From positions 1 to 32,419 of IMG/VR virus record IMGVR_UViG_3300016265_000854: a stretch of 32,419 bases of DNA, one strand, 5' to 3'. Each line of letters opens with the position of its first letter. Positions within the stretch are counted from its first letter, which is position 1. Origin of the DNA: a virus. Taxonomy: Duplodnaviria > Caudoviricetes. The position numbers and the translations under genes were made by a program. The notes beneath the pieces are model-generated. The model was not told the origin of the DNA. It ran no database searches and saw nothing but the letters and a program-made list of their open reading frames with translations. This document shows positions 1 to 32,419 of the stretch, piece after piece.

Positions 1-2265
1 GCTGCCGGTGGCGCAGCGGCGGGCCTTGGCGCTGCCGGGGCGGCGGGTGGCACGGCTGCTGGCCTAGGGGCCGCTGGCGCGGCTGCGGCTGCCCCTGCGG
101 CGGCTGCGGGCGGCACTGGCTTCTTCGCATCCATCCTTCCGTTCCTGGGCCTCTCTGACGCTCGGGCGAAGGAAGACATTAGGCCGGTCGGCAAGACCTT
201 CGACGGGCAGACGGTTTATTCCTATCGGTACAAAGGTGAACCGGGCGTCCAGATGGGCCTGATGGCCCAGGAGGTCGAGCGCCGCCACCCCGATGCGGTC
301 GCGCATGACCATCGCGGTCTGAAGATGGTGAACTACGATCGCGCCACGGCGGACGCTGCGGAGCGCGGGAAGTTCTACGCGGGCGGCCTTGCTCGCTCGG
401 GTTATCAGGTTGGCGGTACGCCGACCGACGAGGAACTCCAGCAGCGGATCGAGGCCGACGCGCCGATCGGGTTTGGCTCGGCGGTTGAAAATGTTCTTGA
501 GCGGGAAGGCCGGGGTCTCGTTCCGGATGATGCGGGCCGTGGTCCGAGCAAGTTTGGCATCAACGCGCAGGCCAATCCCAACGTCGATATTCCCAACCTG
601 ACCGAACCCGAGGCCAGGCGCATTTATCGCGAAGAGTATTGGAACCCTGTAGTGAAGCCGGAGATGAACCCGGCCATGCAGAACATTGCCTTCGACACTG
701 CGGTCCTGATGGGTCAGCCCACGGCCCAGGGGCTTATTGCCCAGTCGGGCAATGACCCGGCCAAACTCCTCGATCTTCGGGATGAGAGGCTGCGGAAAAT
801 GGCCGAGAACCCTCGGCTGGCCCCGCACCTCGAGGGATGGTTGAACCGCAGCCAGGGACTTGCCAATCAATTCCAGCTTGCCCGCGAGGCGAATGCCTCT
901 CCGACTGCGCTGCCCAGCTTTGTGCAGCCGGAGCAGGAGCGGGCCGGCCTAAATCGAGCAGACCTACAGGCGTTCCTTTCCGGAGGGGAGCGCGGAGCGG
1001 CCCCGGGCGAAGAGAGGGATTTCTTCGATCGCGCCGGGGACTGGTTCCAGCGGAACAAGATGTGGATCATCCCCACGGCTAAGGGCCTCGCCACTATGGC
1101 GTCGTCCCCCAGCCGGTATCTTGGCTCGGCTATCCTCCAGGGCGTTGGCGGCGGTGCCCAGGCGTACCAGGATCTGCTCGAGTCCGAGGCTGGCCTTAAT
1201 CAGATCTACGCCGGCATCGCCAAGGGCGCTCTTCCGAAGGAACTGCTGCCGGGCTACCGCTACGTCAATGGCCGCTATGTCCCGATGGCTGGTTTTGAGG
1301 CTATGGGCGATGTCGGGAACATTGAGACTGACCCTCGTCGGGCCAGGGATACGTCTATGGGAGAAGCGCCGGCCCCGAGCGTTGCGGGCGCGGCCATTGA
1401 GGGCGTCACGGGTGAGGGCGAGGGTCCGTTTACGGGCGGCGGTCGTCCCGAGGGCAGCCTGATCGACCCCCAGATTGAAAGGCTTGCTGACCAGAACATC
1501 GAAAACCTCAAGTTTACGATGGGCCAGGAAGAGCCGGATTATCAGACCGGTCCTATGGCTGCGGCGGCAGAAGCCCAGAACCAGCGCCAGAACCTTCTGA
1601 CCTTTGCCAAAGTCACGTCCCGCATCCCGCAGGAAAGCTTCTTCCTGCAAACCGGCGCGGGTGGAGAGGCTCTTAGGCAGGGCGCGGCAGTCCTGAACAG
1701 CTTCTTCGGTCGCACTAGCGGCATGCCGGTAGTCAGGCCCGAAGACCTGGCGAATGCCGAAGAGTTCAGGAAGATCATGGCGCAGATGAACGCTGCCGCC
1801 ACCAGGGCCAATGACATGACGGCCCTGGCTGCGCTGGGGCAAATGGCCGAAGGCTACCCGAGTTACGGCAATTCCCCCCAGGCCCTGCCGATGCTTGTCG
1901 CTGATCTGATGGTCGGCAACCAAAAGAGCATCGACCAGGGGGCTCTTTTCCAGCAGTACCGTGATTTCGTAACCCAGAAATACGGGAACGTCGGACGGTT
2001 CTTGGCCCCGAAGATTGGCCGAGATCTGGATAAGGAGTTCAACCGCGTCTTCTCGCCGGGTCAGTACATGGAAGAGAGGGATGCCCTGATTAAGGCGCTT
2101 TCCAATACCGCCGGTACCGATCCTTCGACGGGCGAGCCAATCTCCTATGCCGAATTTATCATGAAGCACGGCAACAGGCTTAACCCGCAGAAACGTGCGG
2201 AGATTGAAAAACTGCTTGGTTCGCCCAGTGGTGCCCGGAGTGTCTTCCGCTACTTTGGCGTCTAA
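1..2265 (+). CDS. Virion ejection/DNA-transfer protein (5'-truncated) with Ala/Gly-rich segment, internal peptidase S74 chaperone domain and GH108-type lysozyme domain
   Basis: Frame 1 is open from base 1. It reads AAGGAAAGLG...FFASILPFLGL-SDARAKEDIRPVGKTFDGQTVYSYRYKG...GLMAQEVE..HPDAV (S74 SDxRxK and G(L/F)xAQEV motifs), then VLEREGRG..DDAGRGPSKFGI...IYREEYW...AFDTAV...GWLNR (GH108 with peptidoglycan-binding signature). The track's ATG at 253 lies inside the S74 domain. Confidence 0.8.
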   Translation, partial: AAGGAAAGLGAAGAAGGTAAGLGAAGAAAAAPAAAAGGTGFFASILPFLGLSDARAKEDIRPVGKTFDGQTVYSYRYKGEPGVQMGLMAQEVERRHPDAVAHDHRGLKMVNYDRATADAAERGKFYAGGLARSGYQVGGTPTDEELQQRIEADAPIGFGSAVENVLEREGRGLVPDDAGRGPSKFGINAQANPNVDIPNLTEPEARRIYREEYWNPVVKPEMNPAMQNIAFDTAVLMGQPTAQGLIAQSGNDPAKLLDLRDERLRKMAENPRLAPHLEGWLNRSQGLANQFQLAREANASPTALPSFVQPEQERAGLNRADLQAFLSGGERGAAPGEERDFFDRAGDWFQRNKMWIIPTAKGLATMASSPSRYLGSAILQGVGGGAQAYQDLLESEAGLNQIYAGIAKGALPKELLPGYRYVNGRYVPMAGFEAMGDVGNIETDPRRARDTSMGEAPAPSVAGAAIEGVTGEGEGPFTGGGRPEGSLIDPQIERLADQNIENLKFTMGQEEPDYQTGPMAAAAEAQNQRQNLLTFAKVTSRIPQESFFLQTGAGGEALRQGAAVLNSFFGRTSGMPVVRPEDLANAEEFRKIMAQMNAAATRANDMTALAALGQMAEGYPSYGNSPQALPMLVADLMVGNQKSIDQGALFQQYRDFVTQKYGNVGRFLAPKIGRDLDKEFNRVFSPGQYMEERDALIKALSNTAGTDPSTGEPISYAEFIMKHGNRLNPQKRAEIEKLLGSPSGARSVFRYFGV

Positions 2266-2274
2266 GGAGCCATC

Positions 2275-4791
2275 ATGGCCGCGTTCGATCCCAACGAGAT
2301 GCAGCTTATTCCGCCTCGCGGCCCGGAAACCCGGAAGCAGCCGCCAGGAACGGCGATGCCGAGCGTCCCGACGTTCGACAAGGCGGCTCCCGAAGCGGAT
2401 CCGAACAAGATGGTTCTTTCCCCGCCAGGTTCTGGGGGAGAGACGAACAGGCCGAAGCCTGCGGTGAGCCCGGCCCTCGATTTTGGCCGCCAACTTCTCC
2501 AGGGATCCGCCAGGGGCGCTCAAGTCTTGCACCTTCCGCGTTCGCTGGCCTCTCTGGAAAGCGTGGCTGTCGCGGATTTCCCGGCACTCCTCAGAAACCT
2601 GGATGTCTGGGAGGCCAAGGCCAAGGGGACCATTTCCCCGGCCAAAGCGGAAAGCATTCGGCAGTCCTATTACGAACTGCCCGTGGTCGCTGCCGCCAGG
2701 CGGAAGGGCTATTTGCCGCCCCTGACGCCAGAGCAGAGCGCCGGCCTCCGCAGCCCCATTTTCAACGCTCTCACGCTTAAGGGAGAAGAAGAGCGCCTCG
2801 CCCAGGCGGCAAAGGAAGGCAAGGTCGGTCTTTTCGGCGAGTTCAAGCCGGAAGGCAGGGCGGGCACGATTGGCGGCGCTATCGGCGAGTCCATTGTCCC
2901 TTCTGCCATTGGCCCCGCTCGAGGCTTGGCGAGCCGCGTCATTGCTGGCGGCGCCGGCGCGGGCGCTGGGAAGTTCATTGAGGAGCAGTACCCTGGCAAC
3001 GCCTGGGCTCCCATCATCGCGACCCTCGGCGGGGGTTACTTGGCGGAAAAAACGCTCGTTCCGGCAATGGCCGCTACGGGTCGTATTTTTGCGCCCGGGA
3101 CGACAGCCGAGCGCGAATTGATTTCGGCCATTAGCGTTGACCTGGCAAACAACCCGGCCCTTCGCGAAAAGGCCCTGGCGGCCAGGCAAAGCGGGACACC
3201 CCTCCAGCTTCTGGATGTTATGGGGCCTCGAGCGCAGGAACTTTTCAGAAAGAAGGGTTTCGCCGACGCTGACATTCAAAACATTATTGATAGGACCAAG
3301 CCACAATTGGAGGCCAGGGCCAACCAGGGGCCGACCCGGGCGGTCGATTTTATGACGAGCCGGTATGGTGTCCAAAACGCTGGCGAATTGACAGACCTCG
3401 CCAAAGAGGCCGGCAGGCTGGAGCGCACCCGCGTTTATGATTACGCCAGGAACCAGGCGGCGGGTATCCCTATTAGCCTGGGGGATCTCGATCCTTCTTT
3501 GATCAGGAGGCCCGTTTTTAAGCAGGCGATGGATCAGGCGAATATCGTGTCTGACAACATGCCCCAGTACGGCATGTTGGTCCCTGCCCCTTACCGCCAG
3601 CATATCTACCCGAGCGGTCGCGTCATCACCGGGCGGTCGAACCTTCAGTATATGGATCAGGTGAAGCGCGAACTCGAGGCGATAGCGAGGGCGGATCCGT
3701 CGCAGGCTGTAGCGGCTATGGATGCCAGGGACACCCTTCTCAAGACCCTCGACAGCAAATTCCCCGATTACCCCGTGGCCCGAGGCGTTGCGAGCGCGAC
3801 TTTTGCCGCCCAAAACGCGCCGGAGGCGGGGCTTAATTTCTACAAAAAGGCCGATCAATTTGCCGTTAACGACATAAAGAAGGCCATCTCCAGTTATGGC
3901 CCCGACCAGGCGGATCTTTTCGCACGGGGCTTCATGACCGGCGTGACCGCTGACATGGCTAAAGGCAATTTCAAAGGTCTTTATACAAACTTCTTCAGAA
4001 ACCCGGATTTCCAGGAGCGGGCGATGCTCGCGCTTGGCCCTCAACGGTACAATGAAATTGCGGGCAAAGTTGCGGCTGAACAACTCCTTCTGACGAGCGG
4101 CGTCCCAAATTTGAACCCCACTGGGTACGTCCAGAACATGGCTAAGATCGGCGGCTTTACTGGCGTTGGGTCGATGGCCCTCGACTCGCTTATGAACATG
4201 GCAATGTTCAGCGGCAACCCGATCGAAATGCAGAAAGCGCTTGGGGCGGCGGTGGCGGGCGCGTTTGCGGGGGCGCTTAAAACTAAGGGCGATCAGGCCG
4301 TGGGCAGGGAACTTGTCCGCCTGGCATTGTCCGATAGCGCCGGCTCGCGTGAACAACTGGCAAAGCTTCTTTCCCAGTCGTCTATTCGGCGCACCTATGA
4401 ACAAATGATGGCTTATCGGACGCCTGCGACGGCCTATCTCACCCAGGCCGCAGGGCGAGCCATCGAGGGCGGCGGAAACCAGTACCCTGATTATGAAGAG
4501 GCGCAGCGTCGGGCCAAAGCAGGCCCGGAGGGGAGAGCCGATGAGGCGATCAACGAAGCGGTTCGCCAGGGTGTGCGTGAACTTCTTGGGATGCCTCGGT
4601 TCACTGGTGGCCGCGTCGGTCGCGCCGCCGGCGGGCGCATTGGGAGCATAAACCACGCAGCCAAGGCCGCCGCCCTGGTTCGTAGGGCCGAACAGGCGAA
4701 GCGCCAGCACAGCAGCCAGACCGAGGGCATCCTCGATCAGCCGGATACGGTGGTTGCGAAAGCCCTGGCGAAGGCGAACGACGCGATTTAG
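2275..4791 (+). CDS. Large Ala/Gly-rich virion ejection (DNA transfer) protein, 838 aa
   Basis: TAAGGAG RBS. Pro-rich N-terminus and Gly/Ala-rich hydrophobic helices. Last gene of the rightward structural block, as P22-like ejection genes usually are. The C-terminal tail carries RFTGGRV/RAAGGRI motifs. Function inferred from position and composition. Confidence 0.6.
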   Translation: MAAFDPNEMQLIPPRGPETRKQPPGTAMPSVPTFDKAAPEADPNKMVLSPPGSGGETNRPKPAVSPALDFGRQLLQGSARGAQVLHLPRSLASLESVAVADFPALLRNLDVWEAKAKGTISPAKAESIRQSYYELPVVAAARRKGYLPPLTPEQSAGLRSPIFNALTLKGEEERLAQAAKEGKVGLFGEFKPEGRAGTIGGAIGESIVPSAIGPARGLASRVIAGGAGAGAGKFIEEQYPGNAWAPIIATLGGGYLAEKTLVPAMAATGRIFAPGTTAERELISAISVDLANNPALREKALAARQSGTPLQLLDVMGPRAQELFRKKGFADADIQNIIDRTKPQLEARANQGPTRAVDFMTSRYGVQNAGELTDLAKEAGRLERTRVYDYARNQAAGIPISLGDLDPSLIRRPVFKQAMDQANIVSDNMPQYGMLVPAPYRQHIYPSGRVITGRSNLQYMDQVKRELEAIARADPSQAVAAMDARDTLLKTLDSKFPDYPVARGVASATFAAQNAPEAGLNFYKKADQFAVNDIKKAISSYGPDQADLFARGFMTGVTADMAKGNFKGLYTNFFRNPDFQERAMLALGPQRYNEIAGKVAAEQLLLTSGVPNLNPTGYVQNMAKIGGFTGVGSMALDSLMNMAMFSGNPIEMQKALGAAVAGAFAGALKTKGDQAVGRELVRLALSDSAGSREQLAKLLSQSSIRRTYEQMMAYRTPATAYLTQAAGRAIEGGGNQYPDYEEAQRRAKAGPEGRADEAINEAVRQGVRELLGMPRFTGGRVGRAAGGRIGSINHAAKAAALVRRAEQAKRQHSSQTEGILDQPDTVVAKALAKANDAI

Positions 4792-16273: not shown

Positions 16274-16274
16274 T

Positions 16275-16623: not shown

Positions 16624-18242
16624 TGCTGGTCACGATCGACGGGGCAATCATCGACGCTGAACAGGCCCTCCGGGATCTGGATAGGGCGGACTGTGAGGAG
16701 AGCCTGTACACTTTCCTCCAATATGCCTGGCGCTGGTTCGACCCGAGCCCCTTCACCCCTGGGTGGCCGATCGAGGCTGTCGCCGAGCACCTCGAGGCCG
16801 TGGCTGACGGCGAGATCAAGCGGCTGATCATCAACATTCCGCCCCGGTGCGCGAAGAGCAGCTTGGTGTCAGTAGCCTTCCCGTCCTGGGTATGGGCGCA
16901 GAGCCATGTCGGCCCGACGAGCGGCCCCGGCGTTCAGTTCATCATGTCGTCCTACGCCGGGCAGCTAAGCCTCCGCGATAACGTCAAGGCCAGGCGCTTG
17001 ATCGAGAGCCCGTGGTATCGCTCGCTCTGGGAGGAACGCTTCCGGCTGACGAGCGACCAGAACACGAAGGGTCGCTTCGATAACGATCGCGGCGGCGTCC
17101 GCATCGCCACGTCGGTCGGCGCGGCGGTTACGGGCGAAGGCGGCGACATCATCATCATCGACGACCCGAACGGTGCCCAGGACGCCACCTCCGAGGCGGT
17201 GATCGAGAGCACGATCGAATGGTGGGACAGCGCCATGTCCACCCGCCTCAACCGCCCGAAGGAAGGCGCGTTCATCGTCATCCAGCAGCGCCTGGCCGAG
17301 AACGACCTGACCGGGCACATCCTCGAGAAGGACGTGGGCGAGTGGACCCATCTCATGCTGCCGATGCGGTATGAGCCTGACCGAAGCTTCGTCACCTCGA
17401 TCGGCTGGCAGGATCCTCGAGAGTTCGAGGGCGAACTGATGTGGCCCGAGCGGTTCGGCGAGGAGGAAGTGGCGAGCCTCGAGCGCCGCCTCGGCCCCTG
17501 GGCGGCTGCCGGGCAGCTTCAACAGAGGCCCGAGGTGAAGGGCGGCGGCATCATCAAGCGCGAGGACTGGCTGCTCTGGGATAAGGACCGCTTCCCGGAC
17601 ATGGACTACGTCATCGCCTCGCTCGACACGGCCTACACGACGAAGGAGAGCAACGACTACAACGCCCTGGTCATCCTGGGCGTCTTCAGCGGCGAGATGG
17701 TGGATATGCAGGCCCAGGCGTCGAAGGGGCCGAACGGGCAGATCGTCCGCAGCTATAATACGAACATCCCGCCCCGCGTCATGCTGATGAACGCCTGGGC
17801 CGAGCGCCTCGAACTGCACGAACTGGTTCAAAAGGTAGCCGAGAGTTGCCGGGGCGCTCGGATCGACAAGCTTCTGATCGAGAACAAGGCCGCCGGCATC
17901 TCGGTGTCCCAGGAGATCCGCCGCCTTTACGGGCATGAGCCCTGGGCGGTCCAGCTTGTGGACACGGGCCGCCAGGACAAGATGGCCCGGCTCTACTCGG
18001 TCCAGCACCTGTTCGCCGAAGGCATCGTCTACGCCCCCGATCGGTCCTGGGCCGATAAGGTAATCACCCAGGCTGCGGCATTCCCTAAAGCCAAGCATGA
18101 CGACCTTGTCGATGCGCTTAGCCAGGGCATGAAGCACCTTCGCGAAACCGGCATATTGGTGCGCGGCCCCGAGATTACCGCTGGCATCGAGCAAAGCATG
18201 CAGTACACTGGTAAAGGCCCCGCGCCGCTATATCCGACGTGA
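16623..18242 (+). CDS. terL: Terminase large subunit
   Basis: Walker A region INIPPRCAKS, Walker B GDIIIIDDP, QQR..ENDL, nuclease SLDTAY...DYNA...IENKAAG...FPKAKHDDLVDA. Confidence 0.95.
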   Translation: MLVTIDGAIIDAEQALRDLDRADCEESLYTFLQYAWRWFDPSPFTPGWPIEAVAEHLEAVADGEIKRLIINIPPRCAKSSLVSVAFPSWVWAQSHVGPTSGPGVQFIMSSYAGQLSLRDNVKARRLIESPWYRSLWEERFRLTSDQNTKGRFDNDRGGVRIATSVGAAVTGEGGDIIIIDDPNGAQDATSEAVIESTIEWWDSAMSTRLNRPKEGAFIVIQQRLAENDLTGHILEKDVGEWTHLMLPMRYEPDRSFVTSIGWQDPREFEGELMWPERFGEEEVASLERRLGPWAAAGQLQQRPEVKGGGIIKREDWLLWDKDRFPDMDYVIASLDTAYTTKESNDYNALVILGVFSGEMVDMQAQASKGPNGQIVRSYNTNIPPRVMLMNAWAERLELHELVQKVAESCRGARIDKLLIENKAAGISVSQEIRRLYGHEPWAVQLVDTGRQDKMARLYSVQHLFAEGIVYAPDRSWADKVITQAAAFPKAKHDDLVDALSQGMKHLRETGILVRGPEITAGIEQSMQYTGKGPAPLYPT

Positions 18243-21141: not shown

Positions 21142-23493
21142 ATGGCTTTGACACCCGGCCTGAATGCCAATATCCGCCAGCCCATGCCTGAGCCGGAGGC
21201 GCTCCAGCCGGGTGTCGAGGTCGTCGTAGAGGACGCCGACGAGGGCTCGGATCTTCCCGAGTATGGCGATCGCGGCGAGATCCTCCGCATCGAGCATCCT
21301 GATGGCTCGATCTCGGTCAGCCTGGACGGCACCCCTATCGCCGGCGGCCCGCAGAAGCCAAACCTCGACTGGTTCGACAATCTCGTTGATGAGGTGTCGG
21401 ACGCGGAACTGTCCCGCATCGCGGAGGAACTGCTGCGCGGGATCCGCGACGACCTGGACAGCCGCAAAGACTGGGTTGAGGACCGCGCCACGGGCCTGAA
21501 GCTTCTTGGCCTGAAGGTCGAGGTGCCGGGCCTCGGCGGCAGCGCCGAGGGTGCGCCGGTCGAGGGCATGAGCCGCGTCCGCCATCCCCTGCTGCTCGAG
21601 GCCGTCCTGCGCTTCCAGGCGAACGCCAGGAGCGAACTGCTGCCGACCGATGGGCCGGTGAAGGTCCGCGTAAACCAGGCCACTGCCGACCCCGGCGACG
21701 ACGACCTGGCGAACGCCCTCGAGGATGACCTGAACCATTACCTGACCTCGGTGGCGAGCGAGTACTATCCCGACACCGACCGCATGCTGCTGATGCTTGG
21801 CTTCGGCGGCACGTCGTTCAAGAAGGTCTACTACTGCCCGCTCCGGCAGCGCCCGGTGAGCGAGACGGTCGATGCCGAAGACCTGATCGTCAATAACGAG
21901 GCGACCGACCTCCGCAACGCCAAGCGCATTACGCACCGCGTATACATGCGCCCCTCGACGGTGAAGCGGCTCCAGATCCTGGGCGTCTACCGGGATGTAG
22001 ATCTGCCGGCCCCGCTCCAGCCCGAGTGGGACAGCGTTCAGCGCGAGAAGCGCGAGACTGAGGGCCTGAACGGCGGCACGTTCAATCCCGATGATCGCGA
22101 CCGCGAGATTTACGAGTGCTATTGCGAACTCAACATTGAGGGGTTCGAGCACAAGTTTAAGGGCAAGGAGACGGGGCTCGAGATCCCGTACCGCATCACG
22201 ATCGACGTGTCGTCGCGCCAGATCCTTAGCATTGTCCGCAATTACGACGAAGACACGGCGGATCTGCCCGAGGCTCGTACCAATTTCGTCAAGTACACGT
22301 TCGTGCCTGGCTTTGGCTTTTACGACATTGGTCTTCTTCATATTCTTGGTAATACGACGAACGCCATCACGGCGGCCTGGCGCGAAATGCTCGACGCTGG
22401 CATGTATGCCAACTTCCCCGGCTTCTTGCTGGCGGACACGGGCGCTCGGCAGAACACGAACATCTTCCGGGTGCCTCCCGGTGGTTCTGCCCTGGTGAAG
22501 ACCGGCGGTATGCCGCTCAGCCAGGCGGTCATGCCCCTGCCGTACAAAGAGCCCTCGGGCGCTCTGATGTCCCTGGTGGACAACATGGCCCAGACGGGCA
22601 TGAGGATCGGCGGCACGTCGGAGCAACAGGTCGGCGAGGGCCGGGCAGACGCGCCGGTCGGCACGACGCTGGCGATGATCGAACAGGCGACCAAGGTTCT
22701 GAACGCGGTCCACAAGCGCCTACATGCCGCCCAGGCGGAGGAGTTCAGGCTACTGTGCCAGTGCTTCCGCGAGCACCCGGAAAGCTTCTGGCAGCGAAAC
22801 CGCCGGCCCGCCTACCCCTGGGACGAGCAGACGTTCCTCGCGGCCCTCGAGGATTACGACCTGACCCCGCAGGCGGATCCGAACACGGCGAGCCATGCCC
22901 AGCGCGTGATGAAGATCATGGCGCTGAAGCAGCTTCAGGCGGCCCAGCCGAACCTTTACGACCCGGTCGCGATCGACACGGCGGCCCTCCGCGCCATTGG
23001 TTGGAACAACCCCGAGCAGTTCATGATCCCCGAGGGCGTAAACCAGCCGAACGCCCAGGTCATGAAGTACATGGCCGATGCCCAGGTGAAGGCCCAGGAC
23101 GCCGAAACCAAGGCGAAGCTTGTCGAAGCCAAGACGATGGAAGCGATGGCTCGAGCCCAGGACATGAAGGTCCGCACGGCTTTCGACATGGCGAAGTTCA
23201 AGGCCGAGCAGGACGAGGTGACCAAGGGCGACAGCCGGAAGGACGCCCTCGAGGCCGCGCAGCTTGGCATCGACGCCAGGAAGCTTCAGGTCGAGGAAGA
23301 CGCCCAGCTTTCGAGCGAGCGCCTCGAACTGGTGGATCTCGCCCAGAGCCTGGCGGTCCATCCCGAAAGCGCCGCCCTGGTGGCCCCGCTCATGCGGCCT
23401 CTTATGGACGCCGTACAACAGAAGAGTGCCAGGCCGCCGGCAGTCCCTGGGCCTGGCCTTGTGCCCCCGCAGATGCCGCCTAGGAGGCCGTAA
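21142..23493 (+). CDS. Portal protein (P22-like, long helical C-terminal barrel)
   Basis: D..SRKDW...HPLLLEAVLRFQA...G.SFKKVYY...GFYDIGL...PVGTTLAMIEQ...HKRLH and a long Ala/Gln helical tail. Downstream of terL, GAGGA RBS before ATG 21142. Confidence 0.88.
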   Translation: MALTPGLNANIRQPMPEPEALQPGVEVVVEDADEGSDLPEYGDRGEILRIEHPDGSISVSLDGTPIAGGPQKPNLDWFDNLVDEVSDAELSRIAEELLRGIRDDLDSRKDWVEDRATGLKLLGLKVEVPGLGGSAEGAPVEGMSRVRHPLLLEAVLRFQANARSELLPTDGPVKVRVNQATADPGDDDLANALEDDLNHYLTSVASEYYPDTDRMLLMLGFGGTSFKKVYYCPLRQRPVSETVDAEDLIVNNEATDLRNAKRITHRVYMRPSTVKRLQILGVYRDVDLPAPLQPEWDSVQREKRETEGLNGGTFNPDDRDREIYECYCELNIEGFEHKFKGKETGLEIPYRITIDVSSRQILSIVRNYDEDTADLPEARTNFVKYTFVPGFGFYDIGLLHILGNTTNAITAAWREMLDAGMYANFPGFLLADTGARQNTNIFRVPPGGSALVKTGGMPLSQAVMPLPYKEPSGALMSLVDNMAQTGMRIGGTSEQQVGEGRADAPVGTTLAMIEQATKVLNAVHKRLHAAQAEEFRLLCQCFREHPESFWQRNRRPAYPWDEQTFLAALEDYDLTPQADPNTASHAQRVMKIMALKQLQAAQPNLYDPVAIDTAALRAIGWNNPEQFMIPEGVNQPNAQVMKYMADAQVKAQDAETKAKLVEAKTMEAMARAQDMKVRTAFDMAKFKAEQDEVTKGDSRKDALEAAQLGIDARKLQVEEDAQLSSERLELVDLAQSLAVHPESAALVAPLMRPLMDAVQQKSARPPAVPGPGLVPPQMPPRRP

Positions 23494-23663
23494 TGAGCAA
23501 GGACGTGCGCCGCGCCATGCAGGTGGCGAAGTCGGTCATGGAAAAGCCTGCGGCGAAGGTCGAAGCGGCCCGGAAGCTTGACCGGCATCCGGCCCTCGAC
23601 ATCCCCGGCACTCACGTCCGTCACGAAGTTCACGGCGAGCCCATCTTCACCGGGGAAGACTGA
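23493..23663 (+). CDS. Small protein, 56 aa (MSKDVRRAMQVAKSVMEKPAAK...HGEPIFTGED)
   Basis: AGGAGG RBS, TAATG and TGATG coupling to the portal and the next gene. Not in the ORF track. Confidence 0.75.
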   Translation: MSKDVRRAMQVAKSVMEKPAAKVEAARKLDRHPALDIPGTHVRHEVHGEPIFTGED

Positions 23664-26600
23664 TGACTGACAAAGCCGTCCGCAGCGCGTTGATGGTGGC
23701 TCGTCAAACTGTCCATCGGACGCCTTCCGAGCCCCAGAAAAAGGCGGGGAATTACCGTAAGGGGCATTTGTCGTTCCACGGCCTCCCGGTAACGATTGAA
23801 AACCCCAAGGGCGGATATCGCCGAGGCGTCGATCCGAACGGCAAGCCGTGGGCGGTGCGGATGCCTGCGGACTATGGGTATATCAAGCGCACCGAGGGCG
23901 CGGACGGCGACCATGTGGACGTGTACATCGGCCCCCATCTGTCGTCCCCGGCAGTGTTTATTGTCGATCAGAAAGACGCCGAAACGGGCCGCTTTGATGA
24001 ACACAAGGTCATGCTCGGCTTCGACACGGAGAAAGATGCTGTCGAAACGTACCTAAAGGGCTTTAGCGACGGTAAGGCCAAAGATCGTTTGGGCAAAGTG
24101 ACCGGGATGAGCATCCCATCGTTCAAGGCATGGCTGAAGCACGAAGACACGACGCGCCCGGCGGCCCGGATTGCCAAGGCCGAGGGCGGCGAAGTCGAAG
24201 ATGATTACCGGGGCGGACATACGGCCCCGGATGCCGAAAGCGGCGCTCCCCTTCATGACGTGCGCGGCGTTTACCCGGACGATTTTTACGGCCCGAACGG
24301 GTTCCGCTATTACGCCGACTTTGGGAACCCCTACGATCAGGAAGCCTACGCCAAGATCCGGGATGCCAAGGCGCGACCGAATATGCGCCTTGAGGTGTAC
24401 CGCGCCGTTCCCAAAGACCAGCGCATCACCGATATCAACAAGGGCGACTGGGTGGCGATCAGTCGGCAGTACGCCAAGGACCACGGGGAGCATGCGCTCA
24501 ACGGGAATTACAAGATCCTGAAAAAGACCGTGGCGGCCCGCGATCTGTTCACCGCAGGAGATAGCCACCATGAATGGGGCTACCACCCGTCGCCGACGAT
24601 GAGCCATTCCGAGCGCGTTGCCTTGGCAAATCAGGCTCGCGCCAAATTCGGAATGCCCCCGCTTGAGGGGAAGGCCGAGGGCGGCGAAGTCGGCGACGTG
24701 CCCAACGCCATGAACGTCTTCCCCAAGCCCCAGCGCATGCTCCAGGGCGACGATTACGTGCCGGGCGGCAAGTACCTCGACGCGGCGACGGGCGAGGACG
24801 TAACGGGCCACAAAGCGTCGTCGGCCAGCATCGCCATCGCCCCCGGCGGGAAGCCTTCGTTCACCGCCTCGCGGGACGCGGTCGATCAGACGGGATCCCC
24901 CGGCAAGGGCGCGAAACAGATCAAGGCGAACCTCTTCCGCCGGAAAGGGCGCTGGGACTGGGTCGATGCGCCCGAAGGCCACGAAGACAGCGCCATGCTG
25001 GTGTCCCTTGTCCAGCACGACAAGGGCAAGAAACAGCACTACTATTCGCTCGCCGCGCACTTCCCGAAGGGCGTGGATCTTGCCCGTTACCCCAAGGAGA
25101 AGGACGAGCCACGGCTGCGCCCGACGACCAAGGGGGCGTTGGAGTTTGGCCCACAGGTCGGCTCGATCAGGACGAGCAACGGCCACGTCCACCCGGTCTA
25201 CCAGCACATCATCGCCAAGGCGGATGGCGGCCTCGTCACGACGGCGGACGACGACGAAGAGCCCGGCATCACGGCCTATCAGGGCGGCCCGCACCGCGTT
25301 GGCCCCGAGGGCTACGACAATTCCAAGATCGGTACGGGAGAGGGGGCTCAGGTCTACGGACACGGGCATTACTTTGCCGAACATGAACCCGTGGCGATTG
25401 GATACCGCAATAAACTTGCGGGGGCGCCCGGCCTCACCTATGACGGCCAAAAAGTCTTCGGTCACGCCCCCGCAATCTTGAAGAAAATCCATGAAGCCGG
25501 TGGCTCGGTGGATGCTGCGGTTCTGGCAAGCGTATGCATGGATATGGCGGATTACGATCCCGACAAGGCTCTTAAACTTATTCGGCAGCGGAAAAACGTA
25601 GACCCGGACGTTGCAAGCGAGGCGGCGCACCATCTTCTGCGGATAAAAAATGCGCCATCCCCCGGTTACATGCACGAAGTCCGCATCAAGGGCCGTCCCG
25701 AGCATTTCCTCGACTGGGATGCCCGTTTGAGCGAACAGCCTGAAGCTTATGACGCCATCCGTAACCACCTTCAGAGGCTTGCTGAAAAAGAGCCGTCTGG
25801 ACCGTGGGCACAGATGGGTTCAGACGTTGAAAACCGCGCCGGTGAAATTACTGGGCGCGACATGCATGACATGCTGCATAATTTTCGTGGGTTTGCTTTT
25901 TCCAAGAAGATGGCCGCCCGCCATCTTTCCGACGCTGGCATCCGGGGCATCCGTTACCTCGACGCGGGTTCCCGTGGCGCTGGCGAGGGCACCCGCAACT
26001 ACGTCGTCTTCGACCCCAAGCACATCGAGATCAAGCGCCGGTACGCCGAAGGCGGGAGCGTTGACGACGATCCCACGGTCAACCAGGCCCTGGCGCTGAC
26101 CCGACCCAACGACATGGGCCTATACTCGGGCGCGGCGGCCAATATCCTGGCATCGAAGCAGCCCAAGGGTCCGCTCGATCAGATGCTGGCTTCCGCCAGG
26201 GGCATCAAGCCTGACGAGATCCAGTGGTCCGGGATCCACGAAGCCCTGGGCGGCAAGAAGGTGACCCGCGAAGACATCGCCCGGCACTTCGCCGAGAACA
26301 TGCCCCAGGTTCAGGCTACGACGCTCCGCGCTGGCGGGAATGAAGGCGAACCTCAGTATGGAGATTACACGCTCCCCGGGGGCGAAAATTACCGCGAGGT
26401 GCTGCTGCATCTTCCCGAAAGGGAGCCGCCGAATTTCCCTGATTTTGAATCGTATTTCAAAAGGTCGTTCACCAGGCACTCTCCGGAGGCCGAAGAATAT
26501 GTTCGACAGCGGGCAATGGAGGATTGGCAAGCCGCAGAAGGGAAAATCCCCGACTACCGATCTGCCGAGAACTACAACTCGAGCCATTGGGACCAGCCCA

Positions 26601-29203
26601 ATGTGATTGCCCACATCCGCACGAAAGACCGTCGAGGTTTTGGGGGCGAGGATGTCCTGCACCTCGAGGAACTCCAGTCTGACTGGGGCCAAGCTGCCCG
26701 CGATTACACGCCCGCAAATCCGGAACTACGGGCGCAGTCCGAAGAGGCCAAAAAGCAGTACGTGGACTTCCTGAACAACCTCGTCGAAAGGCGTCGTGCG
26801 GGGCTCCTCAACAATGGCTTTACCGAAGAACAGGCCGACAAGGCGCTTGCCCCGCTCATCTTGGTGATGAGCCGTAACCCCAGCCATCCAACATTTGAAT
26901 TGGTCAAACCCCACCTCACTTCGGGCGAGGCCGATACCGCCGAGCGGCTTGATTACATGGCCCGGCAGGGCGGGGAGAAGGGCGCTCCCGTCCCCCCGGG
27001 GCCGTACATCTCCAACACGGACAAGTGGACCGACCTGGGGCTGAAACACGTCCTGACGACCGCTGCCAGAGAGGGCAAGACCCATGTTGCCTGGACGCCC
27101 GGGGCGGAACAGGCCAATCGGTTCGATCTGAGCAATCAGGTCGAGGAGATCGCCTACAACCCGAAGGAAGAACGGCTTTACTACACCCCGATCGGCGCTG
27201 ACAGCGACATAAGGGTGCCTGGTTTTGTGAAGCCGGAAGATCTTCCCAAATATCTGGGCAAAGAAGTTGCCGAAAGGCTGCTCGCCAAGCCTAAAAGCGG
27301 CAGCACTCACTACCTCAGTGGCCGCGATCTTGAGGTCGGCGGCGTCGGGATGAAGAAATATTACGACGAAATCGTCCCGAAGGCCCTTCTTAAGCTTGCT
27401 CGAGAGCATGATCCCGAGGCGAAACTGGGCAAAGTCAGCATTGGAACTGATGGGCGTGGCGTGTATTCGCTCCAGTCTCTCGAAATCACGCCCAAAATGC
27501 GCGAAAGCATCCTCCAGAAGGGCTTTAAGGCGTTCAACCGGGGCGGCATGGCCTATGCCGATGGCGGTTCGGTCGATGATGACGCCGTAAATAAGGCCTT
27601 GGCGCTCACTGCGCCCAACGAGATGGGGCTTTATTCAGGTGCCGCGAGCGCCGCGCTGGCTCTTCCCCAGGCCAAGGGCTCGCTGTCCCAGATGTTGGCG
27701 ACGATGAAGGGCGTGAAGCCAGACGAGATCAAAGGATCCGGGGTCGAAAGGGCGTTCGCTGGCCGTCCCACGGTCACCCGGGAGGATCTGGCCCAGCATT
27801 TCTCCCAGAACATGCCCAAACTGACGAAGACGACCTACTCTGAAAACGCCGGCCCGGACGATGAGGGCCCGGAATACAATGAGCCGGAATACCGCCTCGA
27901 GGGCAGCCAGAAGGCCAGGAATTACCGCGAAATTTTAATTCATCCGCCTGGGCTCAATGATCACATCAAGGGTCACATCGTTTTCCCAAGCGAAGACCGT
28001 TTGGATGATTTTTTGCATGTTATGGCGGACCTTGACCTTGGAGATTACGAATATGGCGGCATTCAGCATAAAGACGGCAATTACCGGGTGATGGAGTACA
28101 ACATCCCGGCGTCCGTTTACCGGCGCATAATTCCTCAAATTCCGGACGATGCGCGAAATGTTTTGCATGAAGATGATGCCGAGGTAATGCGGAAACTTAA
28201 CGCAAAAAAAGATATTTACCGATCCAGCCATTGGGACGTTCCCAACGTCCTCGCGCATCTCCGCATGGATGAGCGCAAAAACACAAATGGCGACAATGTC
28301 CTGCACATGGATGAACTTCAGTCGGATTGGGGACAAAACGCCCGCGTCCGGGGCATTCGACCGCCTCAGGACGAGATTGATCGCCTCAACCAGGCCCATG
28401 ACGAAGCGGAAAGACAATACCACCAATACGTCCGCGATCTTAAAGATCGGGCGGCGCAGCGGTTGATTTCTATGGGGTACTCTCCCGAAGAAGCCGAGCT
28501 GTCTGCCAGGAACATGCCGCTTGGAAACTTGGCGGATTCTATGGGGGAAAGCCGCCAATTCCAGGCGATGATTGGTGCCGCTTCGATGGCGCAAGGGGCT
28601 ATCACGCGGGAAACAAATGCCGTTCCGCACAATCCGCACATCACATCAACCGAGCGGTGGTCCGAACTCGGTCTGAAACAGGCCCTCCTGGAGGCCGCCA
28701 AGGGCGATCACGACTATCTGACGTGGACGCCTGGCGAGATCCAAGCGGAGCGGTGGAAAGAGCCCGGCCTGGCCGAGTTCTACGACAAGGGCGTCCCCAA
28801 ATCGCTCCTGAAGCTTGCCAGGCAGCATGACCCCGAGGCGGCGATCGAAACGGTTTCGCTGCCCAAGAAGCCCAAGACGCGGTTCCCTGCGGTTGGGCCG
28901 AAGAACAACGAGATCCTTCAACAGATCGGCACTCGGTTCCTGGGGCGTAAAGCCACCATGCACGAAGCGGACGAGGCCGCCCGGGTTCTGCGGTCGATGG
29001 ATATTGACCCGAACCGCTGGGATCTTCAGGCGCAGCCCGACGAGGTTTTCAAAGAGGTGTTCTCGGCTGTTCCGGCTCGCCTGAAAGCTTGGCGCGAAGA
29101 GAACTCGAAGCTTGATGTGCCTGGCATTCGGATCACGCCGAAGATGCGCGAAAGCATCCTCAAGCAGGGCTTCAAGGTTTTCCGCCGTGGCGGCGCTGTT
29201 TAG
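23663..29203 (+). CDS. Large polyvalent protein, 1846 aa: inorganic pyrophosphatase (InPase) domain, ART-like domain, unknown domain, ART-PolyVal-like domain, two tandem ELQSDW modules
   Basis: GNYRKGH...IENPKG...DYGYI..TEGADGDHVDVYIG...FDEHKVMLGF (InPase); VYRAVP...GDWVAIS..YA...EWGY; YQGGPH...IGTGEGAQVYGHGHYFAE...NYVVFDP; duplicated SSHWD.PNV.AH.R...ELQSDWGQ. Modules are separated by xxxGGxV motifs. Confidence 0.85.
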   Translation: MTDKAVRSALMVARQTVHRTPSEPQKKAGNYRKGHLSFHGLPVTIENPKGGYRRGVDPNGKPWAVRMPADYGYIKRTEGADGDHVDVYIGPHLSSPAVFIVDQKDAETGRFDEHKVMLGFDTEKDAVETYLKGFSDGKAKDRLGKVTGMSIPSFKAWLKHEDTTRPAARIAKAEGGEVEDDYRGGHTAPDAESGAPLHDVRGVYPDDFYGPNGFRYYADFGNPYDQEAYAKIRDAKARPNMRLEVYRAVPKDQRITDINKGDWVAISRQYAKDHGEHALNGNYKILKKTVAARDLFTAGDSHHEWGYHPSPTMSHSERVALANQARAKFGMPPLEGKAEGGEVGDVPNAMNVFPKPQRMLQGDDYVPGGKYLDAATGEDVTGHKASSASIAIAPGGKPSFTASRDAVDQTGSPGKGAKQIKANLFRRKGRWDWVDAPEGHEDSAMLVSLVQHDKGKKQHYYSLAAHFPKGVDLARYPKEKDEPRLRPTTKGALEFGPQVGSIRTSNGHVHPVYQHIIAKADGGLVTTADDDEEPGITAYQGGPHRVGPEGYDNSKIGTGEGAQVYGHGHYFAEHEPVAIGYRNKLAGAPGLTYDGQKVFGHAPAILKKIHEAGGSVDAAVLASVCMDMADYDPDKALKLIRQRKNVDPDVASEAAHHLLRIKNAPSPGYMHEVRIKGRPEHFLDWDARLSEQPEAYDAIRNHLQRLAEKEPSGPWAQMGSDVENRAGEITGRDMHDMLHNFRGFAFSKKMAARHLSDAGIRGIRYLDAGSRGAGEGTRNYVVFDPKHIEIKRRYAEGGSVDDDPTVNQALALTRPNDMGLYSGAAANILASKQPKGPLDQMLASARGIKPDEIQWSGIHEALGGKKVTREDIARHFAENMPQVQATTLRAGGNEGEPQYGDYTLPGGENYREVLLHLPEREPPNFPDFESYFKRSFTRHSPEAEEYVRQRAMEDWQAAEGKIPDYRSAENYNSSHWDQPNVIAHIRTKDRRGFGGEDVLHLEELQSDWGQAARDYTPANPELRAQSEEAKKQYVDFLNNLVERRRAGLLNNGFTEEQADKALAPLILVMSRNPSHPTFELVKPHLTSGEADTAERLDYMARQGGEKGAPVPPGPYISNTDKWTDLGLKHVLTTAAREGKTHVAWTPGAEQANRFDLSNQVEEIAYNPKEERLYYTPIGADSDIRVPGFVKPEDLPKYLGKEVAERLLAKPKSGSTHYLSGRDLEVGGVGMKKYYDEIVPKALLKLAREHDPEAKLGKVSIGTDGRGVYSLQSLEITPKMRESILQKGFKAFNRGGMAYADGGSVDDDAVNKALALTAPNEMGLYSGAASAALALPQAKGSLSQMLATMKGVKPDEIKGSGVERAFAGRPTVTREDLAQHFSQNMPKLTKTTYSENAGPDDEGPEYNEPEYRLEGSQKARNYREILIHPPGLNDHIKGHIVFPSEDRLDDFLHVMADLDLGDYEYGGIQHKDGNYRVMEYNIPASVYRRIIPQIPDDARNVLHEDDAEVMRKLNAKKDIYRSSHWDVPNVLAHLRMDERKNTNGDNVLHMDELQSDWGQNARVRGIRPPQDEIDRLNQAHDEAERQYHQYVRDLKDRAAQRLISMGYSPEEAELSARNMPLGNLADSMGESRQFQAMIGAASMAQGAITRETNAVPHNPHITSTERWSELGLKQALLEAAKGDHDYLTWTPGEIQAERWKEPGLAEFYDKGVPKSLLKLARQHDPEAAIETVSLPKKPKTRFPAVGPKNNEILQQIGTRFLGRKATMHEADEAARVLRSMDIDPNRWDLQAQPDEVFKEVFSAVPARLKAWREENSKLDVPGIRITPKMRESILKQGFKVFRRGGAV
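24176..24692 (+). repeat. 22-nt exact direct repeat AAGGCCGAGGGCGGCGAAGTCG (encodes KAEGGEV) flanking one protein module
   Basis: Identical copies start at 24176 and 24671, 495 nt apart and in frame. Confidence 0.9.
26042..29203 (+). repeat. Tandem intragenic duplication of a module of about 500-550 aa
   Basis: Units 26042-27553 and 27554-29203 share YA(E/D)GGSVDDD, MGLYSGAA, KPDEI, VTRED, NYRE, SSHWD, ELQSDWGQ, WTPG, LLKLAR.HDPEA and ITPKMRESIL..GFK.F.RGG. Confidence 0.9.
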
Positions 29204-29261
29204 AAAGATGCTGTGCTAATGGCGACTTGCATATACAATATGTGGGCTCGCCGCATAGGGG

Positions 29262-31568
29262 ATGGCCGTGGCCGATGACCGCAAACTGATCTCTCAGCCC
29301 GATCGTCCGGAAGGCTATAACGACCCCCGGGCGGAGGTTATTCCTGATTGGCAGTGGCGCCCTTTCCAGGACGTGAAAAGCCAGCTTGCCCTTAAGGAGA
29401 TCCCGTCCCACGTCCGGAACTTTGGCCGGTACATGGACGAGGTCGCCAAACGCGCCGGTCGCCAGGGCTTGACGGCTCGAGATCTCATCAAGGCGTACAC
29501 GATCACCCGCTCGAGCATCCAGCGCCAGGCTGTCGATGCCGACAAAGTTCGCCAGGCTGGCCTTGTGCTGCCGCCCGACGTGACTGGCAAGATCCGCCCC
29601 GAGGGTGCGTTTGGCGAGTGGCTGCACACGCCCGCCGGCCAGGCTTATCTCGACGCTGCCGAGCGCGGTCAGGTCCACTCCCGGGCTATTGCCGATGCCG
29701 TCATGCGGATGGCTCCGTTCGGCAAGCATGAGAAAGACATTCCCGACGCCCTCGTCTGGGCCGCTCAGAACCTCCCTGGGCGCGAGAAAGAGGCGAGCGA
29801 CCTTATTGCCGCCGCCAGGGCGAAACAGAGCCCCAGGGACCAGTGGAGGGGCTTCACGAAGGACGTGCGCGGCATTGGCCCGAGCAAGGCCGGCTTTCTG
29901 GCGTCCCTGATGGGTCGCGGCGATCTGCCGACCCTCGACGCCCGCCAGGTGATCCTGCACACGGGCCGCCCGACCAAAGAGGCGTCGAAGTACATCGCCC
30001 GCCGCTCTGGCGCTGGGGGCGACGAGGCCGTCGATCGGCTAGCTGCCCGGCAGGAGGCTATGGGCCTCAAGCTGCCAAAAACTCTGTCTCCTTATTACCA
30101 GCATCTCGCCCATCACGCGGTCTGGGACAAGGCCGGCAACGAGCAGACGACGCACGAAGACGTGATGCGGGCCATGCGCGGCGCGGCCACGGGCGGCGCG
30201 ATCATGGGCGACCACCCGGTCGTCTCCGCACTTCGCCAGATGGGTCTGAAGGGGCTCGAGGGTGGCTACGCTCGAGGCGGCTCTCCCGATGACGACATCG
30301 TCCGCCAGGCGCTCGAGCGCATCGCGAGCCCGTTCAGCGATGATCCCGAATCGGTCGCTAGGGCACTGAAGATTGCCCAGTCATACAAGCTTAAAGGCGG
30401 CAATCAGACGGGTACCGGGTCTTATTACACGACCAAGCAGTCCGTTCCGGTCGAAAAAGTAACGGCCAAAATCAAGCCGATCCCTGGCGTGACCCCGAAA
30501 CCGATCGTCCCTATGACGTATGAAGACATTTATAATCTCGGCAAGGGTGGCGGAAGCCTGATCAACGTAGGCGGCGATCGCTCGAACTTGGGGCGCATGA
30601 CCCACATCAACGGCCAGAAGCTTGCGTGGCCCGTGGACCTTCATGCCGGCCCGAACTACATGCGCGAGCCGAACCCTGGCGCGGTGTGGGCGAATGCGCC
30701 CGGGCATGCGACGGCGTTCAGTAATGTGGTCAAAAGGGCCTCCAAAAAGGGTCCCGCGTTCGGTATTTACTCGCCGATGGGGCCTAGGGCGGTCGATAGT
30801 GCCCACCACATGTTTGATGCCTTGATGGCCCAAGTGCCGACCCGGGACATTGATCCCCAGCTTGCGAATGAGTTCGATCGGGAGATCCGCCAGGCCTCTG
30901 GCTATCCCAAGGCCAAGCGGGCTCGAGCCAGGTCGATCCTTGAAAAATGGCCCGGCGTTTTGAATGCCAAGGAAGCTTCGGAGTTTGCCCGGAAGATCCC
31001 TGGCGTCTATCGGTCGTACATTGTCCAGCTTATGGACAAGGCAAAATACCGAAACGCCAATTTCCCCGAAGTGGGCGTGACTCGGGCAGCCATTACGGAT
31101 CCTGACGTATTCAAGGCGCAGGGCAACATGGTCGGACACCGGATTGTCCAGTTCGACCCCACGGCGGCGGCTGCCGAGGAATCAGCGTATCGCCACGGCA
31201 CGTACCCGGCGGCTACGGCTGGCGAATATGTTGGCGACGTTCCCCTGGCTCAACGCCATTACGTATTCCCGACCGTCACGGAACAGCGCCTCGGTAAGCC
31301 GACGAAGAAAGGGCAAATTATCAATCCCTATTCTCCGGATGCGATGGGACGGTCTTCGTACCGCAAGCTTTTTGAGGAACAGAAACAGGTCCAGCCGATC
31401 ACCCAGGAGTGGCTGGATAGCGTGATGACCGGCCTCGAGAACCAGAAGAAGTACGGCTTCAAGCGCGGCGGCACGGTCGCCAGGGCGCTCGAAATGACAT
31501 CGAAAAACGCCGCGCCGCTGCCCGCAGGCGTTTCCGGATCTCGGCAGCACAAACGGGGACGCCCGTAG
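29262..31568 (+). CDS. Two-module polyvalent protein, 768 aa: HhH DNA-glycosylase-like domain plus unknown domain
   Basis: VRGIGPSKAGFLASLMGRGDLPTLD (HhH followed by a conserved Asp) and ...HHAVWD. The second module GGDRSNLG...PVDLHAGPNYM...VWAN is bounded by YARGGSP and FKRGGTV. Confidence 0.7.
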   Translation: MAVADDRKLISQPDRPEGYNDPRAEVIPDWQWRPFQDVKSQLALKEIPSHVRNFGRYMDEVAKRAGRQGLTARDLIKAYTITRSSIQRQAVDADKVRQAGLVLPPDVTGKIRPEGAFGEWLHTPAGQAYLDAAERGQVHSRAIADAVMRMAPFGKHEKDIPDALVWAAQNLPGREKEASDLIAAARAKQSPRDQWRGFTKDVRGIGPSKAGFLASLMGRGDLPTLDARQVILHTGRPTKEASKYIARRSGAGGDEAVDRLAARQEAMGLKLPKTLSPYYQHLAHHAVWDKAGNEQTTHEDVMRAMRGAATGGAIMGDHPVVSALRQMGLKGLEGGYARGGSPDDDIVRQALERIASPFSDDPESVARALKIAQSYKLKGGNQTGTGSYYTTKQSVPVEKVTAKIKPIPGVTPKPIVPMTYEDIYNLGKGGGSLINVGGDRSNLGRMTHINGQKLAWPVDLHAGPNYMREPNPGAVWANAPGHATAFSNVVKRASKKGPAFGIYSPMGPRAVDSAHHMFDALMAQVPTRDIDPQLANEFDREIRQASGYPKAKRARARSILEKWPGVLNAKEASEFARKIPGVYRSYIVQLMDKAKYRNANFPEVGVTRAAITDPDVFKAQGNMVGHRIVQFDPTAAAAEESAYRHGTYPAATAGEYVGDVPLAQRHYVFPTVTEQRLGKPTKKGQIINPYSPDAMGRSSYRKLFEEQKQVQPITQEWLDSVMTGLENQKKYGFKRGGTVARALEMTSKNAAPLPAGVSGSRQHKRGRP

Positions 31569-31591
31569 AACCCTAGCTAGGAGTAAAGTGC

Positions 31592-32419
31592 ATGTCGGAA
31601 ATGGCAAAGGCGGCCCGCGCCGCCAACAAAGCGAAAGCCGCCAGGATGTCGAAGGGTGACCCGAAGACGAAGGTTGACGCCTCGTCTTGGTCGCCGCCGG
31701 AGATGCTCGAGGCGGACAAGAAGACGGGCCTGCGCCCGGTCAGCCGTCGCGCCTACAAGCGCGGTGGAAAGGTCGAGGGCGTGAAGGCTGAGGCCCGCGC
31801 CGACCGCAAGGCTCGCAAGTCTGGTGGCCGTACCGAGGGCACCGAGATCGCGAACGCCTATACCGTCCGCGACGGCAAGGAAGCCAACAAGGAAAAGTTC
31901 GGTTCGTACCACGTCGGCGGCATGAAGCGCGGCGGCAAGGCGGAGAAGCGCCCCGGCAAGCAGTACGGCGGCACCCCTCCGATGCCCCGGCCCAAGCCCA
32001 AGCCCCCGGCCATTTCCCTCGGCATGGACGAGGACGTGACCCGGATGCCCGAGCCGTCCAAGGAATATTCGGAGCGGCAGAAGATCAACGCCGGCGAGAT
32101 GGAGCCAGATTACGAGCCCCGCAAGCGCGGCGGCAAAGCTGAGAAGTTCGAGGGCTCGGCCAAAGACGAGGCGCAGGACCGCAAGCTTGCCAAGAAGCGC
32201 GGTATGTCGATGAAGGAGTGGGAAGCTTCCGAAGCCGACAAGAAGCACGATAAACAGCAGAGCATGAAGGGCCTGAAGCACGGCGGTCACGTCGAGGGCT
32301 GCATGTGCAAGATGTGCGGTGGTCGCGCTGGTCGGGCCGATGGCGGCGAAATTGGTGAGCCCATTCACGTCGCCAATTCCGAAAAGAGCCTAAACTGGCC
32401 CAAGGGTAAGGACCGCCTT
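31592..32419 (+). CDS. Lys/Gly-rich low-complexity late protein (3'-truncated) with about 9 di-glycine motifs
   Basis: AGGAG RBS, ATG 31592, frame open to the window end (276 codons): MSEMAKAARAANKAKAARMSKGDPK...YKRGGKV...MKRGGKA...RADGGEI. Missing from the track because it has no stop in the window. Confidence 0.85.
   Translation, partial: MSEMAKAARAANKAKAARMSKGDPKTKVDASSWSPPEMLEADKKTGLRPVSRRAYKRGGKVEGVKAEARADRKARKSGGRTEGTEIANAYTVRDGKEANKEKFGSYHVGGMKRGGKAEKRPGKQYGGTPPMPRPKPKPPAISLGMDEDVTRMPEPSKEYSERQKINAGEMEPDYEPRKRGGKAEKFEGSAKDEAQDRKLAKKRGMSMKEWEASEADKKHDKQQSMKGLKHGGHVEGCMCKMCGGRAGRADGGEIGEPIHVANSEKSLNWPKGKDRL

Follow-up and report, generated by a model that had tools for sequence, protein, structure and literature searches.

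The window analysed here is an entire contig of 32,419 nucleotides representing a partial genome of a tailed phage (Duplodnaviria; Caudoviricetes; IMG/VR record IMGVR_UViG_3300016265_000854), and we focus on a short di-glycine motif, with the consensus peptide x-[A/K]-x-G-G-x-V, which is found at module joints of the large proteins encoded downstream of its portal gene. The contig opens in the middle of a pilot/ejection gene and continues through recombination and replication genes, the terminase (15713-18242) and the portal gene (21142..23493, without scored motifs) to four post-portal open reading frames (ORFs); all features detailed below lie on the plus strand. The portal protein is 70% identical to that of MW202675 and 33-35% identical to those of the more distant HTVC023P, HTVC027P and CRP-901/902, while its patterns are matched by approximately 1200 stored IMG/VR stretches, placing the phage in an abundant lineage of short-tailed podophages. 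For comparison, 18 near-complete genomes were used as relatives, of which G001-G012 were selected by portal and G014-G018 by a gene termed GEYV (considered below), supplemented by MW202675; their genes were called by our own script and assigned to classes via gene order, the class "second gene after the capsid gene" being set up post hoc, once gene-order data had been seen.

Immediately 3′ of the portal gene lies the gene of a polyvalent cargo protein of 1846 aa (23663..29203), composed of six modules and seven motifs. Module 1 (aa 1-172; 23663..24178) joins an N-terminal helix tag to an inorganic pyrophosphatase-like (InPase) domain (PF18823, aa 24-159), while module 2 (aa 173-337; 24179..24673), matching phrog_2579 over aa 176-314 and flanked on both sides by 21-nt repeats coding for KAEGGEV, is possibly ADP-ribosyltransferase-like as judged by eye, with no Pfam match. 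Module 3 (aa 338-519; 24674..25219) is shared with the relative G008, where it stands in a different context. Module 4 (aa 520-794; 25220..26044) is likely ADP-ribosyltransferase-like: its homologues in three relatives match ART-PolyVal (PF18760) below the curated cut-off, and the window copy itself has no ART-PolyVal match in Pfam. Module 5 (aa 795-1291; 26045..27535), which begins with a helix tag, and its paralogue module 6 (aa 1299-1840; 27557..29182), 31% identical over 562 columns, belong to a family of 14 segments in 19 genomes; in this family (26045-29182 in the window) the stretches EELQSDWGQ and SSHWD are conserved and no Pfam match is found. With coordinates pointing to the residue three before the first Gly, and the hyphen marking a cut predicted after this first residue, the motifs read K-AEGGEV (24176..24196 and 24671..24691), K-ADGGLV (25217..25237), Y-AEGGSV (26042..26062, followed by the helix tag VNQALALT at aa 806), the double F-NRGGMA Y-ADGGSV (27533..27574, followed by VNKALALT at aa 1309) and the terminal F-RRGGAV-stop (29180..29203).

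The next gene encodes a cargo protein of 768 aa (29262..31568) with two modules bounded by three motifs, of which that at 30183 is weak (3.9 bits) and the others lie at 30267 and 31458. It is followed by a basic motif-rich protein (31592..32419; 276 aa visible, 23% Lys+Arg, seven scored motifs), which runs off the contig end and corresponds to the basic gene ending the cargo cluster in relatives. The fourth post-portal ORF, of only 56 aa (23493..23663), lies between the portal and the large cargo gene, carries the helix tag VRRAMQVA near its start and no GG; it is possibly a remnant, or else a tagged peptide of minimal size. In all 18 relatives the portal is followed by a cargo or basic motif gene, and a GroES-like gene is found downstream of the cargo cluster, again in 18/18 (e.g. 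L081:24255-24644; L172:17147-17536).

A preliminary description of this DNA had noted the motif in the form [FYMKR]-x-x-G-G-x-[VIA], and the ten strings it listed for the 1846- and 768-aa proteins are indeed present where it placed them, although AATGGAI (30183), YARGGSP (30267) and, in the pilot protein, YQVGGTP (403) fall outside its own pattern. About nine copies had been attributed to the last ORF, which does contain nine GG dipeptides, five of them fitting the pattern and seven scoring at least 5 bits. The excess over chance was estimated with this same pattern by shuffling each protein 1000 times for the window and 50 times for the 18 relatives. The post-portal ORFs of the window contain 13 matches against 1.25 expected (shuffle maximum 5), whereas its two ejection ORFs (3 versus 0.9, maximum 6) are not significant in the window alone, and packaging genes (0 versus 0.3) and 39 non-structural ORFs (1 versus 1.0) give nothing above expectation. 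Among the relatives 192 matches versus 19.9 expected were counted in post-portal proteins and 70 versus 21.9 in ejection proteins, while portal (3 versus 2.6), head core (3 versus 4.9), terminase (2 versus 1.4), neck/tail (40 versus 31.8, shuffle maximum 42) and non-structural proteins (28 versus 26.4) stay at the level of chance. The same distribution was obtained with a motif matrix trained on the relatives' cargo classes, and hence in-sample for those classes, with the window held out and a cut-off of 5 bits: in the relatives GG sites reach this score in 0/113 cases for portal, 0/133 for head core, 0/56 for terminase, 6/1124 for neck/tail and 3/708 for non-structural proteins, and in the held-out window in 16/38 for post-portal, 2/21 for ejection and 0/30 for other proteins. 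Since the motif is enriched in post-portal and ejection proteins and stands at chance level in scaffold, capsid, tail, portal, terminase and non-structural proteins, it is a marker of cargo and ejection proteins and not, as first proposed, of late proteins generally. In lineage cargo (n=77) the first motif position is occupied mostly by Y (30), F (18), R (10) and K (9), and the second by A (45) or K (18); the x-AxGG variants of the window comprise K-AEGG twice, K-ADGG, Y-AEGG, Y-ADGG, R-AAGG and R-ADGG. The top motif density belongs to a basic protein of 64-139 aa encoded, in most relatives, near the position two genes past the capsid gene (e.g. L170:1870-2178), in which 43/50 GG sites score; it was seen in 13/18 genes at that position and is missing from the subgroup of G014, G015 and MW202675.

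The motif-bounded segments are units shuffled between relatives. When 27 cargo proteins were split at motifs and the motif itself was trimmed off, ten segment families were obtained, with order and partners varying among relatives. Thus the InPase module opens the 1846-aa protein of the window and occupies the C-terminal position in MW202675, G014 and G015, and both modules of the 768-aa protein are fused downstream of a module-5/6 homologue in G001, G003 and G008, so that a gene boundary of the window is a motif joint elsewhere. Alignments lead to the same result: 43 of the 58 internal ends of homology blocks in the 1846-aa protein are located no more than 30 aa from a motif (expectation 17.7%), as are 5/5 in the 768-aa protein, the segment families being the cleaner test because shared tag sequence can draw alignment ends towards motifs. 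None of the best-scoring Pfam stretches crosses a motif in the cargo proteins of 19 relatives; the domains recognised there are ART-PolyVal, M15, GP88 and DUF7178, with InPase in the window. In this part the earlier proposal, that the ORFs are strings of independent modules delimited by the motif, is borne out. The motif copies at 24176-24196 and 24671-24691 share 21 identical nt on either side of one 165-aa module, as would be left by a recent insertion by recombination, suggesting that motifs serve as crossover points. The remaining 14 copies compared differ at synonymous positions, and a DNA repeat as the sole cause of the motif was rejected because most copies differ in this way.

The helix tag, [VIA]xxA[LM]x[LVIMT][ATVS], was defined by eye from the window and looks amphipathic. 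In the relatives it occurs 36 times in post-portal proteins against 3.9 expected, 15 times in GEYV (0.6), 26 times in ejection proteins (9.6) and 32 times in non-structural proteins (22.5). Within cargo 34 of 40 tags lie at a terminus or not farther than 30 aa after a motif, zones that make up 15% of residues. Loading of DarB in phage P1 depends on its first 30 residues (PMC9024508), which makes a loading role of the tag plausible; by this analogy it may direct proteins to the head. The short signals of T4 internal proteins and P1 DarB resemble the tag of this lineage in its often N-terminal position, and differ in that here it is also repeated inside chains, after motifs (PMC9024508).

At the opposite end of the window the pilot/ejection protein (1..2265, its 5′ part missing) contains an S74 domain (aa 52-100) and a GH108 lysozyme (aa 163-238), and the second ejection-position protein of 838 aa (2275..4791) carries motifs at 4597 and 4621 ahead of a conserved C-terminal domain of about 50 aa. 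The sites at 373, 403, 4597 and 4621 reported previously for these two proteins are thus all present, those at 373 and 403 being weak (3.2 and 2.0 bits). An acetyltransferase-like gene (L082:8694-9188) is found between GEYV and the pilot gene in 18/18 relatives; its product might conceivably modify new N-termini.

The register in which the motif could be cut is suggested by proteins of other phages. The tape-measure protein pb2 of T5 was found by liquid chromatography-mass spectrometry to be cut after R1127 (Linares et al., 2023; PMC10038345), and the sequence at this point, NSFVPR-AEGGMM with the hyphen at the cut, places it two residues ahead of GG. The T5 site scores 5.8 bits with the lineage matrix, and the two sites of lambda gpH, F-ATGG (733-737) and Y-ATGG (778-782), score 3.7 and 8.4. 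Among 109 loci of the T5-type family, chosen via the downstream pattern only, GG is located 10-20 aa upstream of the core in 88, with one common spacing in 72; several residues are used just ahead of the predicted cut (R 22, F 14, L 11, M 9, Y 8) and the next is A in 62/88, so that by sequence the T5-type and lineage cargo patterns around this point appear to be the same. For gpH a cleavage fragment of about 14 kDa is described, the site and the catalyst being stated as unknown in a 2025 paper (PMC12617516); a cut predicted after F733 would leave 120 aa, close to this size. The third case is gp45 (C1) of crAss001, a virion cargo protein resolved as two pieces, 214-245 bound to the tail and 425-552 bound to the portal (Bayfield et al., 2023; PMC10172136). 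It contains about seven motifs, while none was found by our pattern in gp46, gp47 and gp49; each resolved piece stays within one motif-bounded segment, 425-552 begins at A425-F-G-G, exactly the predicted new N-terminus, and in 28 C1 homologues conservation starts at the motif. In the available portion of the crAss001 paper neither the motif nor a cut is mentioned (PMC10172136). Taken together, the R-AEGG cut in T5, the K-AEGG occurring twice in the window and the start of C1 at A425-F-G-G therefore make a cut before AxGG likely.

Which protein would recognise the motif is a separate matter, and GEYV is our candidate. This gene of 170-400 aa is present in 12/12 portal-selected genomes, some two genes ahead of the pilot gene, and its product contains two units homologous to each other (hhalign 92%), besides the helix tag and its own motifs. 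With a lambda-type domain profile built from 120 unrelated loci, selected by a tape-measure pattern, 18/18 GEYV proteins, lambda gpH and gp79 of HTVC023P were matched at 14-24 bits, the next score among 1396 proteins being 5.5; from this comparison GEYV appears to be a tandem, stand-alone form of the small domain found after the motif in gpH. Neither the lambda-type nor the T5-type domain profile finds anything above noise among the window proteins, the lambda-type profile does not match T5 pb2, and a locus search seeded with lambda returned only copies 94-100% identical. The first GEYV unit retains the Asp of the family and is devoid of Glu, the second has an invariant Glu and a non-invariant Asp, an arrangement that would fit a shared acidic site. 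GEYV belongs to a large family, with 3158 clusters at 90% and, as matches to the GEYV profile, 2981 clusters at 50% identity. Solved structures gave no sequence match to GEYV and no Foldseek hit in PDB at E 0.001; VIA-align of modest-confidence models reached Z 5.7 at best, for the N-terminal helices, and Z 4.2 for the core (73 residues, rmsd 3.0), C1 not being among the results for the core, and in a viral structure library only uncharacterised phage proteins were matched. The first 45 aa of GEYV (L082:8103-8240) match phrog_2423, and tblastn matches of its N-terminus overlap or adjoin head maturation protease genes of Acinetobacter phages; the domain also occurs at the C-terminus of proteins reaching 1500 aa, in some of which ART-PolyVal modules are present (P0130, P0147, P0162, P0214). 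Ahead of many lambda-type domains (L465-L586) AxGG is replaced by F-[SAT]-G-x-G, a possible variant of the site.

We consider it on balance probable that the motif is a maturation site cut just before A/K, freeing effectors and basic peptides. According to this scheme, cargo chains would enter the prohead, probably by means of the helix tag, and then cut before each AxGG, two residues ahead of Gly-Gly, yielding single effectors (InPase, likely ADP-ribosyltransferases and further modules) together with short basic peptides, pieces of a size and form able to pass portal and tail; the enzyme would be GEYV or else S74, an unannotated core protein or a host protease. We infer the virion location of cargo from gene position and from crAss001 gp45, and cleavage in this lineage from the comparisons above. 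GEYV is thus a candidate to read or cut the motif in trans, and that it is the cutting enzyme itself is possible and still doubtful.

A number of observations weigh against this maturation scheme. Within the window, 4/32 homology blocks of the 1846-aa protein cross a motif and 6/10 blocks of the 768-aa protein run across one, covering both modules; moreover, this partial contig lacks the capsid and GEYV genes, the place of the latter being expected beyond its left end. The two GEYV models are modest (mean pLDDT 59.5 and 59.6), neither the GEYV profile nor the lambda-type profile matches gp45, lambda-type, T5-type and C1 domains are not linked by profile comparison (probability 6% or less), and GG is missing 10-30 aa upstream of 46/120 lambda-type domains. 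The crAss001 gp45 was modelled as one continuous chain with peptides detected between the two pieces (PMC10172136), and a resolved start at a domain edge may not mean a cut. The single mapped cut at the motif that we found is that of T5, outside this lineage and with Arg before the scissile bond, and in the available portions of the DT57C, JBD30, P1, phi24B and Douge papers no further one is reported; the JBD30 authors treat an analogous site, elsewhere in their protein, as Arg-C-type. Some polyvalent proteins are packaged unprocessed, the N4 virion polymerase being an example (Iyer et al., 2017; PMC5512222).

Other explanations have to be considered against the same data. The motif could be a docking peptide, bound yet uncut, which hooks each module to a portal-bound adaptor (GEYV or a C1-like protein) and thereby loads cargo near the portal. 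Such a role agrees with the C1 piece 425-552, ordered with its motif on the portal wing of mature virions, and with motifs located 6-35 aa from C-termini, where cutting releases little; the ESM Atlas also names the C1 family as the nearest named cluster to GEYV (two queries, 0.83-0.84), a lead only, which profile comparison did not confirm. However, the motif is cut in T5, a chain break would suit both the gene splits at motifs and the motif pairs spaced by 7-9 aa, and the separate helix tag, carried even by the 56-aa ORF free of GG, is better placed as the loading signal; docking is regarded as unlikely. Still less probable is a flexible joint that serves as a recombination handle, short DNA identity permitting module swaps with no protein partner involved: the 21-nt identity around one module and module exchange at motifs speak for it, whereas the other 14 copies differ synonymously, the residue preferences persist across T5-like, lambda-like and crAss-like proteins, and the motif is repeated in basic proteins that show no apparent folded modules. 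This role can nevertheless coexist with cutting.

As to the enzyme, the preliminary description had proposed cleavage at Gly-Gly. The processing role survives as the best reading; the position of the cut after GG does not fare so well. Adenain, pS273R of African swine fever virus, SUMO proteases and C39 enzymes all cut after Gly-Gly, and the adenovirus-type consensus has M/I/L two residues before GG. An enzyme of CE-clan, C39 or SUMO type would be in line with the invariant GG and with sites at module joints, as polyprotein joints with Gly-Gly are common to those systems; the mapped T5 cut, by contrast, lies two residues earlier, before AxGG, residues before GG are resolved in C1, and M/I/L occupies this position in 3/168 scored sites. 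CE-clan, C39 and prohead-protease families, which the preliminary description had suggested looking for elsewhere in the genome, were detected by Pfam in 0/148 proteins of the complete genomes G001 and G007, a set that omits proteins shorter than 55 aa and the G001 pilot gene and includes many proteins without any Pfam match. Such an enzyme is judged very improbable. In the same two genomes the known protease families detected are limited to S74 and one ArdC-linked zincin (G007), and NCBIfam added nothing more. Within the preferred maturation reading, a cut before AxGG could be made by something other than GEYV, namely the S74 domain of the pilot protein acting in trans, a host protease or a core head protein without annotation, a variant to which we give slightly less credence than to GEYV. 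A start of S74 type, SDxRLK, is present in 15/19 pilot proteins, several core genes of the relatives carry no annotation, and involvement of the host in cleavage of a T5 tail protein is reported in the title of an older paper to which the T5 study refers. Lambda gpH, on the other side, has no S74 domain in Pfam. S74 domains cut in cis at their own start, which counts against their acting in trans. A more speculative extension, offered tentatively, is that the Asp/Glu domain following AxGG in lambda-type tape-measure proteins is an unrecognised protease, self-cutting in siphophages and here freed as a two-unit gene that cuts tagged cargo in trans, while the helix tag loads the pieces.

Known systems share parts of this organisation. 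Tape-measure maturation in T5 and lambda involves injected proteins, the same peptide and the same register (R-AEGG in T5, K-AEGG in the window), and the single domain of lambda gpH is found in tandem in GEYV; the present case differs by the short tail of the phage, by many sites per chain, by what we take from gene position to be head-cargo proteins, and by the Gly-Glu domain, which follows the motif in-chain there and is encoded by a separate gene in the relatives. The T5 domain itself showed no sequence link to GEYV. Polyvalent proteins are likewise large multi-domain chains encoded by portal or terminase genes and contain InPase and ART-PolyVal; their processing is ascribed to zincin or assemblin domains, and the word "glycine" is absent from the main text (PMC5512222), while no zincin was matched by Pfam in lineage cargo proteins. 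The crAss001 C1 protein is a virion cargo with repeated AxGG motifs and resolved pieces that keep to motif boundaries; it differs in being treated as one chain (PMC10172136), and homology of its domain to GEYV was not found by profile comparison.

Thus the class of polyvalent proteins and the cuts in T5 and lambda are already known, whereas the present analysis adds the start of C1 in the T5 register, the helix tag and the tandem GEYV gene with its profile link to lambda gpH; in the open-licence literature we found no paper describing the motif in phage cargo proteins. The register predicts a cut of lambda gpH after F733 and gives a candidate domain for it, and crAss001 C1, for which a single chain threading the portal was modelled, is predicted to be possibly several pieces. 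If the reading of the Asp/Glu domain as a protease is true, cleavage of lambda gpH would be explained and a two-tag modular code for protein delivery would emerge. Such a shared cut-and-load code, if true, would define both ends of injected phage effectors, and their uncharacterised modules would become easy to delimit and test.

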